A stretch of DNA of 64,000 bases from Thermodesulfobacteriota bacterium (GTDB lineage: Bacteria; Desulfobacterota; Desulfomonilia; Desulfomonilales; Desulfomonilaceae), in assembly GCA_040755955.1 (NCBI GenBank), contig JBFMAA010000009.1, positions 1 to 64,000 on the forward strand. Direction: 5' to 3'. This document shows positions 29,430 through 35,451 of this stretch, one piece after another. Each line of letters starts with the position of its first letter. Position 1 is the stretch's first letter. A model generated the notes under the pieces. It was not told the DNA's origin and ran no database searches. It worked only from the letters and a program-made list of their open reading frames with translations. The translations under genes were made by a program, and so were the position numbers.

Positions 29430-31118
29430 TTGAGCGCGATTTTCGGTTCTACGCGCGGTCTCAAGTCCTCACCGCGGTCCGGGCTGGAGAAGCTGGCACT
29501 GCGCAGACTTCCGGCTGATTGCGTGATCACCCCCCAGGTCGCCCGGCGAATGACCGAGCTTTCCGCAGAAATCAGGAGGCAGATCGGGCTGCTGGTCGAC
29601 CGTGGGGGGAATGTCTGGCGCGTGCTGGTCGGAGATTCCCGCTCGATTCTGATCCCCAGACTCCACGGCTGGCGCGTCGGCGTCGGGCGTCTGCGAGGTT
29701 TGAGACTCGTCCACACCCACCTCAAGGACGAACCCCTCAGCGAGGAAGACCTGACCGACCTGGCGTTGTTGCGTCTGGATCTGATCGCGTCCGTGGGAAT
29801 GGACGCGGAAGGTCTCCCGACCGTGGTCCACATTGCCCACCTGCTGCCGGACAACCCGACCCACGAGGTGTGGCAGGTGCTCCCTCCGATCTCTGTGCAC
29901 GCCCTGGACCTGGACTTCACTGCCTTCGTCAAGGGCCTCGAAGACGAAATCGCACGGTCCGTTACAGGACGCTCGGTCAAAGGAGATACCGAGCGGGCCT
30001 TCCTCATCGGCAAGGTTGCCGGGCGCACCTGGGAAGTGGAGGAGTCCCTGGACGAGCTTGAGGAGTTGGCAAGGTCCTGTGGCGTCGAGGTGGTGGGGAA
30101 GACGGTTCAGCAGAGGAACTCAGAGGATCCAAGGTTTTTCGTGGGAAAGGGGAAACTCAGAACGCTGGTTATCGAGGCGTTGCAAAAGGCCTCCGGGATG
30201 CTCGTCTTCGACACGGAATTGAGCCCGGACCAGGTCAAGGCAATCGGCAGATTCACCGAGCTGAAGGTGATAGATCGTTCGCAGCTCATACTCGACATTT
30301 TTGCCCAGCGGGCCAAGACCCAGGAAGGGAAGATCCAGGTGGAGCTTGCCCAGTTGAGATACGCGCTGCCCCGCCTCGGCGAAAAGGATGACGCGCTTTC
30401 CCGGCTCACCGGAGGCATCGGCGGCCGAGGCCCTGGAGAGACGAAGCTCGAGATAGATCGACGTCGCATTCACAGCCGCATTGCGTTTCTCGAGAAACAG
30501 ACCGAGGAGCTTGGCCACCGCCGTGCGCTGCGCCGAGGCCTGAGAAACAGGAAAGGCATACCTGTGATCTCGATCGTCGGTTATACGAATGCGGGCAAGT
30601 CCACGTTGCTCAATGCGCTTACGAAGTCCTCGATTCTGGTGGAAGACAAGCTTTTTGCCACACTCGATCCGACGAGTCGCCGGCTGAGATTCCCCCGGGA
30701 AACCGAGGTCATCATCACCGACACGGTTGGTTTCCTGCGGGAACTCCCCGAGGACCTGGTAGCCGCGTTTTCCGCGACGCTGGACGAGCTCGCGGACGCG
30801 GACCTGCTCCTGCACGTGATAGACTGTGCCAACCCATCGTTCGAAGCCCAGATGACTGCGGTAGAGCAGGTCCTGGAGAAGCTCGAACTGGACGAAATTC
30901 CCGTGATCCGCGTCTTCAACAAGCAGGACAAGGCCGGCATGGAGCTGGTGCGCCGGACCTGCGCGGCCTATGATGGCATCGGGATTTCGGCCTTGGATTC
31001 CAAGACGTTCCCGCCGCTCATCAAGAGGATGGAGGACGAGATTATTCACCTCATGACCTCCGCGGATTCACTCGAAAAAAAACAGGAGCCTCCCAGCGAA
31101 TCATGGAGCGCCGGATGA
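29430..31118 (+). CDS. hflX: GTPase HflX with N-terminal extension
   Basis: 562 aa; HflX N-domain, G-domain GYTNAGKST...DTVGF...NKQD, C-terminal domain; first ~100 aa are an Arg-rich extension not seen in compact HflX. Confidence 0.85.
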   Translation: MSAIFGSTRGLKSSPRSGLEKLALRRLPADCVITPQVARRMTELSAEIRRQIGLLVDRGGNVWRVLVGDSRSILIPRLHGWRVGVGRLRGLRLVHTHLKDEPLSEEDLTDLALLRLDLIASVGMDAEGLPTVVHIAHLLPDNPTHEVWQVLPPISVHALDLDFTAFVKGLEDEIARSVTGRSVKGDTERAFLIGKVAGRTWEVEESLDELEELARSCGVEVVGKTVQQRNSEDPRFFVGKGKLRTLVIEALQKASGMLVFDTELSPDQVKAIGRFTELKVIDRSQLILDIFAQRAKTQEGKIQVELAQLRYALPRLGEKDDALSRLTGGIGGRGPGETKLEIDRRRIHSRIAFLEKQTEELGHRRALRRGLRNRKGIPVISIVGYTNAGKSTLLNALTKSSILVEDKLFATLDPTSRRLRFPRETEVIITDTVGFLRELPEDLVAAFSATLDELADADLLLHVIDCANPSFEAQMTAVEQVLEKLELDEIPVIRVFNKQDKAGMELVRRTCAAYDGIGISALDSKTFPPLIKRMEDEIIHLMTSADSLEKKQEPPSESWSAG

Positions 31119-32079: not shown

Positions 32080-33399
32080 ATGCGGATGAGGAGAGGAACA
32101 ACCGTGATTACCAAGTTCGCGATCAAGAACTTCCGCACCCATCGAGATACTGAGATCGAGTTGGGTCCTCTCACTCTGTTGATTGGTTCAAACAATTCAG
32201 GCAAGACAAACTTGCTCTCCGCACTGCGACACTTCTCTCTTGTTGTTGCACTGGGCAGACCCGACACGGGAGATTCACCCCCGGAGTCAGATGACAAAGA
32301 GCCTCTGAGGGCCACAAACGCCGGGCAGCAGTCCTTGCGCCACCACAATCTCTTTCCCCATAGGCACAGGCTCTCAGGCGATGACGAGCCTATGTCTTTC
32401 CGCTGTGAATGGAAGCGGAAATCGGGAAAGGGAAACTATCTTATCGAACTCTACAAAGATGAGAGCCTTCCTAACCAGGTTGGGTGCAGGGAGCGCATAA
32501 TCGTCGAGACCACGGGGGCGGGATCTCCGAGGACGTTTGAGTCCGGATGGGAGCGGCGCGTCGATTGGCCCAGTTTGCAGACTCAGATCAGAGCCGAAGG
32601 CCTTCCCAAGAATCAAATGGAACTCGTTTCCACTCTGTTCCGGGACCTGGCCCAATGTTATGCGTATCATCTTCAGCCCTCATTTCTCAAGGGGCGTTCC
32701 TCCGGAGACCTTGGGCATTCTCTCGAGGACCCGGTCAGAATCCCACGCGACCTGGGTTACGAAGGTTCAGGACTTCAACCGTTGCTCAAGACAATCAGTG
32801 AACGGGAGCGACGGACGTTCGACGGCTTCCTCACCTTCATGCGACGCTTTGAACCGTCTTTCCACGGAGTCAGGTTTGACGAACATCGCAAAGAGCTTCT
32901 GTGGGAATTCGATATCGGAAGAGAGCCTCCAGGGCTTGAACAATTCCGACCAGACGTGGTGTCCGACGGTCTTCTGCGCGCCGCCGCAATTGCACTGTTG
33001 TGCGCGATGCACAATCCCCCTTCTCTGATCCTGCTGGAAGAGATCGAGGACGGAATCAGTCAGATGAACATCGGACGCTTCCTTGGTTGGCTGAGAAAAG
33101 CGGCGGGAAAGCCGGATGCCCAGGACAAAGGATATCGGACGCAATTCCTCGTCACGTCCCACAGTCCCTCGGTATTGCGCGACTTCGCAGACCACCTGGA
33201 GGACGCGTATTCCGTCCGGTTGGATTCGAGAGGCTACCGCAGTGTCGTCACCAATCTTAATGAGTCCCTTGCGTACCTCGTCGACCTCGGTGGCGCAGAC
33301 GGCGAAACCACCGAGCGTGACGGCAAGAAGATCGTTCGGATTCCGCCCTATGAGCTCGTAGAACTTTGGTATCGCGGCACTATCGGAGGGGAACGATGA
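32080..33399 (+). CDS. ABC-type AAA family ATPase (AAA_21/AAA_15-like), predicted defence ATPase
   Basis: 439 aa; N-terminal FAIKNFRTHRDTEIELGPLTLLIGSNNSGKTNLLSAL (Walker A), C-terminal LILLEEIEDG (Walker B) and TSHS H-loop; stop overlaps next gene (ATGA). Confidence 0.7.
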   Translation: MRMRRGTTVITKFAIKNFRTHRDTEIELGPLTLLIGSNNSGKTNLLSALRHFSLVVALGRPDTGDSPPESDDKEPLRATNAGQQSLRHHNLFPHRHRLSGDDEPMSFRCEWKRKSGKGNYLIELYKDESLPNQVGCRERIIVETTGAGSPRTFESGWERRVDWPSLQTQIRAEGLPKNQMELVSTLFRDLAQCYAYHLQPSFLKGRSSGDLGHSLEDPVRIPRDLGYEGSGLQPLLKTISERERRTFDGFLTFMRRFEPSFHGVRFDEHRKELLWEFDIGREPPGLEQFRPDVVSDGLLRAAAIALLCAMHNPPSLILLEEIEDGISQMNIGRFLGWLRKAAGKPDAQDKGYRTQFLVTSHSPSVLRDFADHLEDAYSVRLDSRGYRSVVTNLNESLAYLVDLGGADGETTERDGKKIVRIPPYELVELWYRGTIGGER

Positions 33400-34151
33400 A
33401 CCTTCCGGACAATTGCCGGTGCGTGGGGATCGTGGGGGACGGGCCCACAGACAGGCAGGTGGTCGAGCGATTGGTCACCTGTTTGCTGAGCGATCTTGGC
33501 GGCGAGGTGCTGATATTCCATTATCTCGATGAGTTGACGCTTCACGACGACATGGACAGGTTCTTCAGGAAGGCTTCCAAACAATCCGATTACTCCTTGT
33601 CGGACGAACCGGCCCAGAGACTTCGCTCTGCGGCTTTCGATCTTCTTCTTACGGGAGTAGGCATGCTTCAGCAGAGGTTGGATAGGTCTCTGAGCAATCT
33701 CGATGTCCTTGTCCTGCATTGTGATGCCGAGTCGTTCCTGAAATCGCCGGATCAGCATTTTTCGGAACCCTGGGCCCTGGCGGCTGTGGTGTCGGTTCAC
33801 AACGGTATCGAATGGTTCTATCACACGCAGTCGGAACAATATGTGCCTAACGAATGCGTGCCTCTGATAGTTCCTCTCGTCATGTTTCCGAGTACCGAGA
33901 TCATCGTGGCTGCTGCCAAGACCCCAATGGGAGTTTCTTTCCGGTCCCGCGGCAAGAGCGCGGCAGATCTCAAACTCGATCTCTATAATGAAGCAGACCT
34001 TCGTAACCTCAGCAAGCAGGAATTCGAGCAACTGGTTCTCCAGCACATCACTGTTGATGCATGTGGCTCCATTTACAGGCATGTGCCGGAGACTCGCGCC
34101 TTCTTCCGAGTCCTGAGCTGGAACCGAGGCTGTATCCCGTCAACAGGGTGA
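33396..34151 (+). CDS. DUF4276/TOPRIM-like (OLD-family nuclease-like) protein, partner of upstream ATPase
   Basis: 251 aa; N-terminal VGIVGDGPTD resembles the EGxTE opening of DUF4276/RloB-like proteins; later VLVLHCDAE acidic cluster; translationally coupled to ATPase. Confidence 0.45.
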   Translation: MNLPDNCRCVGIVGDGPTDRQVVERLVTCLLSDLGGEVLIFHYLDELTLHDDMDRFFRKASKQSDYSLSDEPAQRLRSAAFDLLLTGVGMLQQRLDRSLSNLDVLVLHCDAESFLKSPDQHFSEPWALAAVVSVHNGIEWFYHTQSEQYVPNECVPLIVPLVMFPSTEIIVAAAKTPMGVSFRSRGKSAADLKLDLYNEADLRNLSKQEFEQLVLQHITVDACGSIYRHVPETRAFFRVLSWNRGCIPSTG

Positions 34152-34269: not shown

Positions 34270-34734
34270 ATGAACAACCGTCCCCTTCTACTCATCGTGT
34301 ACCACTCTCAGTCCGGCAACACCGACCGGCTCTCCGCGGCCGTCGAGGAGGGGGCCCGGAAGGTCCTGGATGTGCGCGTGGAACGCAAGAAGGCGGCTCA
34401 GGTTACCGCGGCGGACATCGAGCAATGTCGGATGCTTGTGGTGTGCAGCCCCGAGTATTTCGGGTACATGGCTGGAGCAGTTAAGGACCTGTTCGACCGT
34501 ACGTACGAGGCCGTCCGCCAACGTATTCGTGGCAAACCGTATGCGCTCGTGATCTGCGCGGGAAACGACGGGACCGGAGCCCTCAATTCGATCGAGCGTA
34601 TACTCAAGGGCTGCGGAGTCAGGCGAGTGCAGGAGCCGCTCATCTCCAGAGGGCCCGTATCCGAGGAGATTCTGCGGAAATGCCGGGAGCTTGGGGAAAC
34701 CCTCGCAGCAGGCATCGAATTGGGGATATACTGA
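34270..34734 (+). CDS. flavodoxin-like fold NAD(P)H-dependent oxidoreductase
   Basis: 154 aa; LLLIVYHSQSGNT flavin-binding loop typical of NADPH-dependent FMN reductase/flavodoxin family. Confidence 0.7.
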   Translation: MNNRPLLLIVYHSQSGNTDRLSAAVEEGARKVLDVRVERKKAAQVTAADIEQCRMLVVCSPEYFGYMAGAVKDLFDRTYEAVRQRIRGKPYALVICAGNDGTGALNSIERILKGCGVRRVQEPLISRGPVSEEILRKCRELGETLAAGIELGIY

Positions 34735-34882
34735 GGCGAAGGACTTACAAGGGTGCCGTGGATTCTCAGAAAACCGGCAGGCGTATTGCTGTGAATCCTG
34801 AGATCCGTGGTGGGAAACCCGTCATTGGTGGATTATCGTTTTCAGGGGTCTTCTCGATCCTTGTTTGCGGAAGGAAGCAACA

Positions 34883-35113
34883 ATGACCGCTCACGAACAT
34901 ACAATCGCTAAGGTTCAGCAACTGCCCGAGCCCTTGCTGCAAGAGGTCAATGACTTCATTGATTTTCTTATGGTGAGACACGATCGGACACTTTGGGACA
35001 TGTGGACCCATTTCAGTGAGGGACTCGACCTGGTGGAGCCAGACTTCCCCAGCTACTTGCCAAACCTTGAAACATATGAGGAGAGCTTGGCTCGTGGAGA
35101 CTTCCGATGGTGA
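34883..35113 (+). CDS. DUF2281-type antitoxin (MazE functional analogue)
   Basis: 76 aa; KVQQLPEPLLQEVNDFIDFL motif; GGAAGGA SD; stop overlaps mazF start. Confidence 0.7.
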   Translation: MTAHEHTIAKVQQLPEPLLQEVNDFIDFLMVRHDRTLWDMWTHFSEGLDLVEPDFPSYLPNLETYEESLARGDFRW

Positions 35114-35451
35114 CGGTTTCCCGCGGGGACGTGATCCTGTGTGATCTCAACCCGATGGTAGGGACGGAGCAGTCTGGAGTCCGGCCTGCGCTGGTCGTCC
35201 AGATCGACCGTGCAAATGCCGTGAGTCCGCACATCATCATTGTTCCGTTCACTACGCGCATTCACAGTGTGGTTCTCCCGTCTCATGCGCTCATTCCCGC
35301 AGGCACCGGTGGGCTGACACGCGATTCGGTGGTGCTCTGCGAGCAGATTAGAGTGATCGATAAGCGCCGTGTCATTCGTGTGCTTGGTCACTTGAGCGAC
35401 CCCTATATGGAACAGGTGGCCGGCGCACTGCGGACGATCCTTGGGCTGTGA
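35107..35451 (+). CDS. mazF: MazF/PemK family endoribonuclease toxin
   Basis: 114 aa; RGDVILCDLNP...GVRPALVVQ...VPFTT PemK signature. Confidence 0.85.
   Translation: MVTVSRGDVILCDLNPMVGTEQSGVRPALVVQIDRANAVSPHIIIVPFTTRIHSVVLPSHALIPAGTGGLTRDSVVLCEQIRVIDKRRVIRVLGHLSDPYMEQVAGALRTILGL

Follow-up and report, generated by a model that had tools for sequence, protein, structure and literature searches.

Modules that pair an ABC ATPase with a TOPRIM protein form a major, fast-diversifying branch of bacterial immunity, a class that includes OLD, Gabija, PARIS, AbiL, MADS3-4 and HEC-01. PARIS consists of the ABC ATPase AriA and the DUF4435 TOPRIM tRNase AriB, and HEC-01 (Hma-embedded candidate 01) joins the ABC ATPase HEC-01A to the DUF4276 TOPRIM protein HEC-01B. 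The TOPRIM fold is a three-layer alpha/beta structure with a four-strand parallel sheet of order 2-1-3-4; its hallmarks are a Glu after strand 1 and a DxD after strand 3, to which the OLD/AriB type adds metal-B ligands. The metal-site residues of AriB are E26, D30, D88, E90 and E122 (PMC11464382), and the corresponding set described for BpOLD comprises E400, E404, D455, D457, T506 and E508, with K562 in the helical domain (PMC6755086). An HEC-01 system (ABC ATPase plus DUF4276 TOPRIM) shielded E. coli from one phage or more (PMC12881386). No protection of E. coli was seen with the HEC-01 that was tested first (Payne et al., bioRxiv 10.1101/2024.01.29.577857).

A pair of overlapping genes in the window (the whole stretch of 64,000 nucleotides that was analysed) was compared with these systems. 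By analogy, the pair is probably a variant of the ATPase-TOPRIM defence modules with a new partner family, most likely a relative of the PARIS/HEC-01/OLD class of anti-phage systems and not a new kind of system. Its genes and their junction are as follows.

32104..33399, + strand: ORF1, predicted ABC-type (SMC/Rad50/PtuA-like) ATPase, 431 aa from GTG 32104
32089..32097, + strand: Shine-Dalgarno-like AGGAGAGGA before the ORF1 GTG, read directly from the sequence
33396..34151, + strand: ORF2, 251 aa from ATG 33396, member of an unannotated family
33385..33399, + strand: coupling junction of ORF1 and ORF2, read directly from the sequence

Both ORFs of the original prediction lie on the + strand at the coordinates it gave, and every motif it quoted was present. 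It had described ORF1 as a 439-aa ATPase starting at the in-frame ATG 32080 (32080..33399), of which the ATPase assignment stood and the length probably did not: GTG 32104 is probably the true start because the NCBI record is 431 aa long, because the homologue alignment starts at that residue and because AGGAGAGGA (32089-32097) sits shortly 5' of the GTG. The proposed overlap of stop and start was located at ATGA 33396-33399, where the ORF2 ATG (33396-33398) overlaps the ORF1 stop TGA (33397-33399), and GGAGG (33385-33389) lies 6 nt 5' of this ATG. The spacing between the two genes in related loci ranged from -20 to +37 nt. No promoter-like sites were found, terminator-like sites were at shuffle expectation, and the GC content of the pair was about 3 points lower than that of the whole window (0.553 vs 0.583).

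ORF1 matched Pfam AAA_21 (70.8 bits, cut-off 27) and AAA_15 (54.7 bits, cut-off 32.1) above their gathering thresholds, in agreement with the architecture first assigned to it. The Pfam description of AAA_21 mentions an AbiEii-type toxin of a type IV toxin-antitoxin (TA) system. The top PADLOC models for ORF1 were HEC-01A (3.6e-26) and mad3 (1.9e-24), followed by AriA, AbiLi, NsnB, GajA and Old, so that the suggested likeness to ATPase-plus-TOPRIM systems was borne out at the level of the ATPase, whose nearest defence models include HEC-01A, Mad3, AriA and AbiLi. The score against the NCBIfam equivalog MAD3 (NF047739) was 49 bits, under the curated cut-off of 420; judged by sequence, ORF1 is related to Mad3 yet is no Mad3 equivalog. 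The residues conserved in an alignment of 43 homologues fall in the following motifs, numbered in the 431-aa form.

32185..32208, + strand: Walker A/P-loop GSNNSGKT, residues 28-35 (G28, N30, G33 and K34 invariant in the 43 homologues)
32665..32682, + strand: candidate Q-loop region YHLQPS (Q191 invariant in the homologue alignment)
32956..32976, + strand: ABC signature-like VVSDGLL with S287, D288 and G289 (S287 and G289 invariant, D288 conserved in at least 90%)
33025..33054, + strand: Walker B and catalytic glutamate LILLEEIEDG with E312, E313 and E315 (E313 and E315 invariant), inside the AAA_21 match
33154..33165, + strand: H-loop TSHS (H353 invariant)

YHLQPS is a candidate Q-loop by its place in the ABC fold. 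With this motif included, ORF1 is an SMC/Rad50/PtuA-like ABC ATPase whose catalytic motifs (Walker A, Q-loop, signature, Walker B and H-loop) are intact.

The pair is a real conserved two-gene cassette, well beyond chance, because both proteins are conserved across phyla and because their order is kept wherever it could be followed: an ATPase homologue lay directly upstream of the ORF2 homologue, on the same strand, in 27/27 loci with upstream sequence, which answers the question of co-occurrence in other genomes raised with the original prediction. These 27 testable loci correspond to about 16 non-redundant contexts and include Cyanobacteria, Poribacteria, Coatesbacteria and a Chitinophagaceae (Bacteroidota) lineage. 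Identity to homologues across phyla was 37-66% for ORF1 and 23-42% for ORF2, and the identities of the two proteins to the window pair were correlated (r = 0.56). A word-indexed homologue search with ORF2 returned ORF2 alone, and an exhaustive HMMER search recovered 91 clusters of its family among 1.84 billion proteins, carried by cyanobacteria, Planctomycetota, Poribacteria, Bacteroidota and Thermodesulfobacteriota; pattern scans yielded 2 loci in genomes and 7 in metagenomes. The ORF2 family was not found in phage records, IMG/VR viral contigs or PHROGs, and a family member occurred in 1 plasmid record among 72,556. Thus, the cassette is not evidently phage- or plasmid-borne.

Most cassette contexts are housekeeping ones, and the neighbourhoods vary, with no conserved arrangement; one copy is inserted within a glycine-cleavage (gcv) operon. 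In the window, the cassette lies between a VTT-domain gene and a flavodoxin-like gene; the latter separates it from a MazF/PemK toxin-antitoxin pair about 0.7 kb downstream, which confirms the MazEF neighbour noted at the outset. The suggestion of defence cargo has one clear parallel in another genome: plasmid p1 of Planktothrix carries the two genes inside an Hma defence system, between HmaA (4.4e-157) and HmaB (5.3e-127), which is followed by HmaC (1.2e-125). At a few further loci, copies adjoin an HKD+Snf2 helicase, or PDC-S15, HigBA and IS elements. TA pairs also lie near the cassette in loci L028-L030, and in L029 the partner gene is disrupted. No tRNA was present in the window, and the direct repeats flanking the window cassette were short and at chance level.

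For ORF2, no family was matched in Pfam, NCBIfam, PHROG or PDB sequences, and in PADLOC nothing consistent beyond weak N-terminal matches to PDC-M31B. The scans of Pfam, NCBIfam, PADLOC, PHROG and PDB sequences were extended to 65 family members, and the resemblance to DUF4276/RloB-type TOPRIM proteins on which the original prediction had relied could not be sustained. DUF4276 (PF14103) and HEC-01B gave no match at E <= 0.1 for ORF2 or any of the 65 relatives, whereas genuine DUF4276 proteins matched the DUF4276, HEC-01B and mad4 models at 1e-30 to 1e-90. One relative in 65 matched mad4 (E 0.011) and one OLD-like_TOPRIM (E 0.068), both isolated and at noise level; PF14491 (DUF4435), PF13707, PF20469, the generic Toprim Pfam and PADLOC AriB, Old and GajA produced nothing consistent among ORF2 and the 65 relatives. 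Across the 65 members searched, the sequence of ORF2 could not be tied with statistical significance to any family of TOPRIM proteins. The ORF2-family profile had no match in PDB sequences at E <= 10, and hhalign gave the family alignment a probability of 0.3% against HEC-01B and 0.2% against a thin 5-sequence DUF4276 alignment. A pairing of 'AIExFY' in ORF2 with 'ELEaFY' in DUF4276 proposed by hhalign was dismissed, being insignificant and joining motifs in different secondary-structure elements.

The predicted structure of ORF2 was confident (pLDDT 95.3) and consists of a four-strand alpha/beta core, in which a helical insert separates strand 2 from strand 3, followed by a C-terminal helical region; Foldseek found no PDB match for it below E 0.03. 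Residue conservation was counted over 65 sequences, with the following motifs.

33426..33452, + strand: motif 1, GIVGDGPTD, where strand 1 ends and helix 1 begins (D15 64/65, G16 65/65, T/S18 61/65, D19 65/65)
33699..33731, + strand: motif 2, LDVLVLHCDAE, with D110-x-E112 closing strand 3 (D110 65/65; E112 63/65 plus 2 D; D103 62/65)
33882..33899, + strand: motif 3, MFPSTE, with F164, P165, S166 and E168, right behind strand 4 (P165 65/65, S166 64/65)
33966..33986, + strand: helix DLKLDLY (189-197 in the model) with invariant K193 (K193 65/65, Y197 58/65)
34083..34097, + strand: C-terminal P231-E232-x-R234 (P 62/65, E 63/65, R 59/65)

In the model, motif 1 joins a strand (7-13) to a helix (17-34), strand 3 spans residues 104-110 with D103 just ahead of it, and motif 3 lies between a strand (157-163) and a helix (168-174). 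At position 168, 36 of the 65 sequences have E and the other 29 have D, so that the residue is acidic throughout, and D15, G16, D19, D110, E112, S166, [E/D]168 and K193 are 97-100% conserved. A TOPRIM-type acidic pattern is therefore present, with acids after strand 1, DxE after strand 3 and S-x-[E/D] after strand 4. When residues were matched to AriB and OLD by their order and secondary-structure position, not by superposition, motif 1 appeared as the positional analogue of AriB E26/D30 and BpOLD E400/E404, D110-x-E112 as that of the TOPRIM DxD (BpOLD D455/D457, AriB D88/E90) and motif 3 as that of BpOLD T506/E508 and AriB E122; K193 may be the counterpart of BpOLD K562. Relative to the TOPRIM site, the replacements are chemically equivalent (E to D and D to E). 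The acids at the C-terminal ends of strands 1, 3 and 4, together with the lysine, are predicted to reproduce the two-metal phosphodiester-cleavage arrangement of the AriB/OLD TOPRIM, and we propose that ORF2 looks like a very divergent TOPRIM-like metal-dependent nuclease.

Among the described systems, HEC-01 and Mad3-Mad4 share with the cassette two co-oriented genes, of which the first encodes an AAA_15/21 ABC ATPase and the second a small partner. Like HEC-01, a member of the ORF2 family is embedded in an Hma system, and ORF2, like HEC-01B, carries acidic motifs after strands 1 and 3. However, the ORF2 family is about 245 aa long as against about 190 aa for HEC-01B, carries the helical insert that separates strands 2 and 3, differs in its C-terminal region, and reads DGxTD in motif 1 where HEC-01B/DUF4276 has EE or EG, and ORF1 is just 21% identical to the tested HEC-01A. 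PARIS differs in that ORF2 has no DUF4435 or AriB HMM match, in that ORF1 is structurally nearer to PtuA than to AriA, and in that PARIS is often phage- or satellite-borne, whereas the ORF2 family was not found on phages or satellites. Septu and retron type I-A differ in the partner, PtuB being an HNH nuclease and ORF2 an alpha/beta protein without HNH features. The OLD family (P2 Old, class 2 BpOLD and Gabija GajA) offers the parallel of an ABC ATPase combined with a two-metal TOPRIM and a helical-domain lysine, and the positional pattern of ORF2 follows that of BpOLD E400/E404, D455/D457, T506/E508 and K562 (PMC6755086).

[quoted passage not shown] By analogy with PARIS, ORF1 and ORF2 would be co-translated and would assemble, with the ATPase keeping the nuclease inactive; variable inserts of the ATPase would then sense a cue from the phage, and this cue, along with the binding or hydrolysis of ATP, would release or license ORF2. 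ORF2 would cut nucleic acid of the host or the phage (tRNA or DNA), and growth arrest or abortive infection would bring the infection to a halt. We infer the complex, the nuclease activity of ORF2, its substrate, the trigger and the defence phenotype alike by analogy. A tenable alternative, to which we give somewhat less than an even chance, is that the ORF2 family constitutes a class of effectors not described before. It would be either a TOPRIM lineage that has diverged to an extreme degree, with a helical insertion and a C-terminal domain of its own, or a separate four-strand fold that binds metal. With its dedicated ABC ATPase it would make up a distinct unnamed anti-phage system, present in cyanobacteria and in a number of phyla that are for the most part uncultured, whose trigger and nucleic-acid target would be unlike those of PARIS, OLD and HEC-01.

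The conserved gene order would also fit a module in which ORF2 is no nuclease and is instead a regulatory domain of receiver, flavodoxin or MID type, with a metal, phosphate or nucleotide as its ligand, that acts on the ABC ATPase or is itself modulated by it. We regard this as unlikely, since the ORF2 model has four strands and receiver and flavodoxin folds have five, since receiver matches align 80-98 residues as against 156 for the DUF4435-type PH0156, since two-metal sites of the AriB/OLD kind typically have both the DxE of strand 3 and an acid at the position behind strand 4 that is acidic in every sequence here (PMC11464382, PMC6755086), and since the nearest ATPase relatives of ORF1 all partner nuclease effectors. 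It is similarly improbable that the cassette is mainly a selfish, toxin-antitoxin-like addiction module without an anti-phage role, in which ORF2 would be a toxic nuclease, the ATPase its neutraliser, and the pair kept because its loss is harmful. Tight translational coupling, the patchy distribution in variable and often housekeeping contexts (the gcv insertion among them), the TA pairs nearby in the window and in L028-L030, the AbiEii reference in the AAA_21 text and the disrupted partner gene of L029 all speak for such a module; the position of the cassette inside an Hma defence system and beside other defence candidates and its near absence from plasmids speak against it. It also overlaps with the sensor-effector module favoured above, because ATPase-restrained toxicity is itself the defence mechanism of PARIS (PMC11464382). 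A housekeeping DNA-repair or chromosome-maintenance module, comparable to RecF (ABC ATPase) with RecR (TOPRIM) or to SMC/Rad50-type complexes, is very improbable given a family so rare and patchy, a neighbourhood that is not conserved, an ORF1 in which a coiled-coil arm was looked for and was absent, NCBIfam scores far under the RecF and Rad50 cut-offs (32 vs 172 bits for RecF) and best ORF1 matches that are defence ATPases.

The partner family ORF2 is unrecognised by the protein-family, defence-model and solved-structure libraries searched, and for this reason PADLOC-type HMM annotation misses the cassette in the genomes that carry it. If the sensor-effector reading were confirmed, the family would provide defence annotation with an additional HMM, would allow a test of how much drift (E to D, DxD to DxE) the two-metal site of TOPRIM proteins tolerates with its function kept, and would offer a further sensor-effector pair for asking what ABC ATPases sense; the overall view of the construction of these systems would be unchanged. 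The one library family that ORF2 relatives matched repeatedly was PDC-M31B, from the PADLOC candidate PDC-M31 (FAM_00005 + FAM_00304): 26 of the 65 members weakly matched its N-terminus (best E 5e-4), and the window ORF2 itself did so at E 0.029, under any reasonable reporting threshold. In length (233-241 positions) the PDC-M31B profiles are close to ORF2, and the similarity, compared by profile only, is confined to about 25 N-terminal residues that correspond to the strand-1/helix-1 motif. The partner ATPase of PDC-M31B belongs to FAM_00005, a family that also supplies the first (ATPase) gene of HEC-01-model cassettes.

Two overlapping genes make up the pair, that of an ABC ATPase and that of its partner:

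32080..33399, + strand, ORF1, 439 aa counted from the first ATG
33396..34151, + strand, ORF2, 251 aa

Every motif that the original prediction quoted for the two proteins was found in the window sequence, as was the claimed overlap of the ORF1 stop with the ORF2 start (ATGA, 33396-33399); a GGAGG sequence precedes the ORF2 ATG by 6 nt. Both ORFs were judged real, but the 439-aa length proposed for ORF1 is doubtful, and a GTG start at 32104, giving 431 aa, is most likely. The database entry for the protein (P0002, from a Thermodesulfobacteriota MAG) is 431 aa long, an alignment of 43 ORF1 homologues begins at the position of this GTG, and AGGAGAGGA stands just ahead of the codon.

The prediction of an AAA_21/AAA_15 ATPase was confirmed by Pfam matches above threshold (2.7e-19 and 1.6e-14, respectively). 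The best PADLOC models for ORF1 were HEC-01A (3.6e-26), mad3 (1.9e-24), and AriA (3.9e-22), followed by PDC-M07A/M25A, AbiLi, NsnB, GajA, Old, and PtuA. ORF1 looks catalytically competent because the ATPase motif residues (Walker A G28/K34, Q191, signature S287-D-G289, Walker B including E313, and H353) do not vary among the 43 homologues, and its AlphaFold model reached a pLDDT of 90.8. On the basis of the Pfam and PADLOC matches, intact motifs, and model, ORF1 is therefore an SMC/Rad50-like ABC ATPase of the defence type that lacks a long coiled coil. It was rejected as an equivalog of any named protein (MAD3 NCBIfam score of 49 bits versus a cut-off of 420), and its identity to the HEC-01A protein that has been tested is 21%. 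The sole low-confidence segment of the model (pLDDT < 50; residues 59-73 of the 431-aa form, window 32278-32322) is a disordered, charged, and poorly conserved insert following the Walker A helix, which by analogy could be a variable sensing surface, as in other defence ABC ATPases.

Loci were gathered through ATPase homologues, ORF2 homologues, and genome, metagenome, and plasmid searches. By tblastn, the gene immediately preceding the ORF2 homologue, in the same orientation, encoded an ORF1 homologue at 27/27 loci with upstream sequence (about 16 non-redundant contexts; L027, which begins 91 nt ahead of its ORF2-homologue gene, was left out), so that the pair is kept as neighbours in other genomes. 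Intergenic distances ranged from -20 to +37 nt, and across loci ORF1 identity to the window protein correlated with ORF2 identity (r = 0.56), which is consistent with co-inheritance. Hosts, as given by record titles and source names, include Cyanobacteria (among them Gloeothece PCC 7424 and a Planktothrix plasmid locus), Poribacteria, Coatesbacteria, and a Chitinophagaceae (Bacteroidota) lineage; a Planctomycetes record contributes an ATPase homologue. In one Bacteroidota metagenome contig (L029, 9258-9972) the partner gene was called as two pieces of 180 and 69 aa, whereas in an otherwise near-identical contig (L028, 9258-9974) it is intact at 238 aa; the split may stem from a frameshift that inactivated this copy or from faulty assembly.

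ORF2 had no significant match in Pfam, NCBIfam, PADLOC, or PHROGs, a word-indexed homologue search returned only the protein itself, and a 65-sequence profile run against the PDB sequences had no match up to E <= 10. An exhaustive HMMER search recovered 91 cluster representatives of the family among 1.84 billion proteins, nearly all of 226-258 aa and 23-42% identity. The resemblance to DUF4276/RloB that had been proposed was not borne out. ORF2 falls outside these families by every sequence test run, because 65 members scanned singly gave no DUF4276, DUF4435, RloB, HEC-01B, or AriB match and hhalign against the HEC-01B sequence (a DUF4276 protein; Payne et al. supplement) and its four plasmid homologues gave 0.2-0.3% probability. 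Genuine DUF4276 proteins score 1e-30 to 1e-90 against the HEC-01 partner models. Single matches to OLD-like_TOPRIM (0.068) and mad4 (0.011) in the 65-member scan were at noise level. The sole recurrent signal was a weak similarity to PDC-M31B, confined to the N-terminal ~25 residues (26/65 members, best E 5e-4); the ATPase of PDC-M31, a PADLOC candidate cassette, belongs to FAM_00005, as does that of the first gene in the HEC-01 model cassettes.

The AlphaFold model of ORF2, built from the 65-sequence alignment, was confident (pLDDT 95.3, pTM 0.92), with the following elements and conserved residues:

Strand 7-13, helix 17-34, strand 38-43: N-terminal elements
Helices 50-63 and 71-94: insertion
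Strand 104-110, helix 120-147, strand 157-163: core continued
Up to residue 246: helical C-terminal region
D15 (64/65), G16 (65/65), T/S18 (61/65), D19 (65/65): directly past strand 1
D103 (62/65), D110 (65/65), E112 (63 E + 2 D): strand 3 end
F164, P165 (65/65), S166 (64/65), position 168 (36 E + 29 D, always acidic): directly past strand 4
K193 (65/65): later helix
P231, E232, R234: further near-invariant residues

The near-invariant residues agree in order and placement with the two-metal TOPRIM sites of the class 2 OLD nuclease BpOLD (E400, E404, D455-x-D457, and T506-x-E508, with K562 contributed by the helical domain; PMC6755086) and of AriB (E26, D30, D88, E90, and E122, likewise with D-x-E; PMC11464382), a correspondence that we infer by position in the model. 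The replacement of E by D in the first motif, noted in the original prediction, held as a conservative change (D15). Foldseek returned nothing below E 0.03, and OLD, DnaG, topoisomerase, and AriB chains were all absent from the best 60 matches. The structural evidence is compatible with a DUF4435-like TOPRIM plus helical domain and is non-discriminating by itself. A rival reading, in which ORF2 is a receiver- or MID-like regulator and no nuclease, was given lower weight.

ABC ATPase plus TOPRIM architectures are well known, and such systems diversify widely. The new element is the ORF2 partner family, which is unrecognised by all protein-family, defence-model, and solved-structure libraries used, is always the companion of its own ATPase clade, and carries an unusual sequence signature (DGxTD / DxE / SxE / K); it is of use mainly for annotating genomes and for testing how far TOPRIM proteins can diverge. 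The best-supported reading of the pair is a two-gene module of an ABC ATPase and a divergent TOPRIM-like putative nuclease, of the OLD/PARIS/HEC-01 class. In PARIS, AriB is sequestered by an AriA hexamer until trigger binding and ATP bring about its release, dimerisation, and tRNA cleavage (PMC11464382, PMC12409363); by the same logic, ORF1 would hold ORF2 in check until it senses a cue from a phage, and the freed ORF2 would cleave nucleic acid. The first HEC-01 put to test gave no protection (bioRxiv 10.1101/2024.01.29.577857), and one HEC-01 system protected E. coli B from at least one phage (PMC12881386). PADLOC HEC-01 output needs careful reading, as the labels of two models appear swapped: PDLC04143 'HEC-01A' (190 positions) matches DUF4276 proteins (up to 3.9e-90) and the ATPase is matched by PDLC04144 'HEC-01B' (395 positions).

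Plasmid p1 of Planktothrix pseudagardhii carries, in this order, HmaA (4.4e-157), the ATPase, the ORF2 homologue, HmaB (5.3e-127), a hypothetical gene, and HmaC (1.2e-125), so that the pair has, within the Hma defence system, the 'embedded' arrangement on which Payne et al. nominated their HEC and PDC candidates (bioRxiv 10.1101/2024.01.29.577857). The hypothetical gene (L016, 11795-12379, 194 aa, without a PADLOC match) is a second embedded gene in that system. Other copies adjoin an HKD+Snf2 helicase (C3a139, 1.5e-35), a further one has IS elements, Nmad2, HigB/HigA, and PDC-S15 (1.9e-105) around it, and two (L008 and L022) lie between MoxR and AddB. At L010 (4722-6738), the cassette (an ATPase of 425 aa and a partner of 245 aa) sits within a glycine-cleavage gene cluster, with gcvT before it and an alpha/beta hydrolase (opposite strand), gcvH, and gcvP after it, and looks like an insertion into an operon. 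Such varied neighbours are typical of a mobile cassette; phage records, IMG/VR contigs, and PHROGs contained no member of the ORF2 family. A purely selfish addiction module and a RecF/RecR-like housekeeping pair both carry less weight than the ATPase-nuclease module.

In the window, HflX and a VTT/DedA-type membrane protein lie upstream of the pair and a flavodoxin-like gene lies downstream, followed by a toxin-antitoxin pair, an HAD hydrolase, and ArgJ. The MazEF pair reported beside the cassette is present, with the flavodoxin-like gene between them:

34865-35451, + strand, type II toxin-antitoxin pair (Pfam matches)
34865-35113, + strand, DUF2281-type antitoxin, 82 aa (Pfam 6.1e-06)
35107-35451, + strand, PemK/MazF toxin, 114 aa (8.1e-30; 7-nt overlap with the antitoxin gene)

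The GC content of the ATPase pair was 0.553 versus 0.583 for the whole window, and that of the toxin-antitoxin pair was slightly low too (0.56). No tRNA genes and no convincing repeats flanking the cassette were found in the window. A 9-nt direct repeat, AACAACCGT, brackets the cassette at the starts of ORF1 (32097-32105) and the flavodoxin-like gene (34273-34281), within a 20-nt 80% repeat, and is probably fortuitous because by our estimate chance alone would yield about 30 such 9-mer repeats in 4.2 kb. The HflX-type GTPase ORF (29430-31118, + strand, 562 aa from TTG 29430) has its first Pfam domain (GTP-bdg_N) only from residue 204, and either carries an unusual ~200-aa N-terminal extension or truly starts further downstream.
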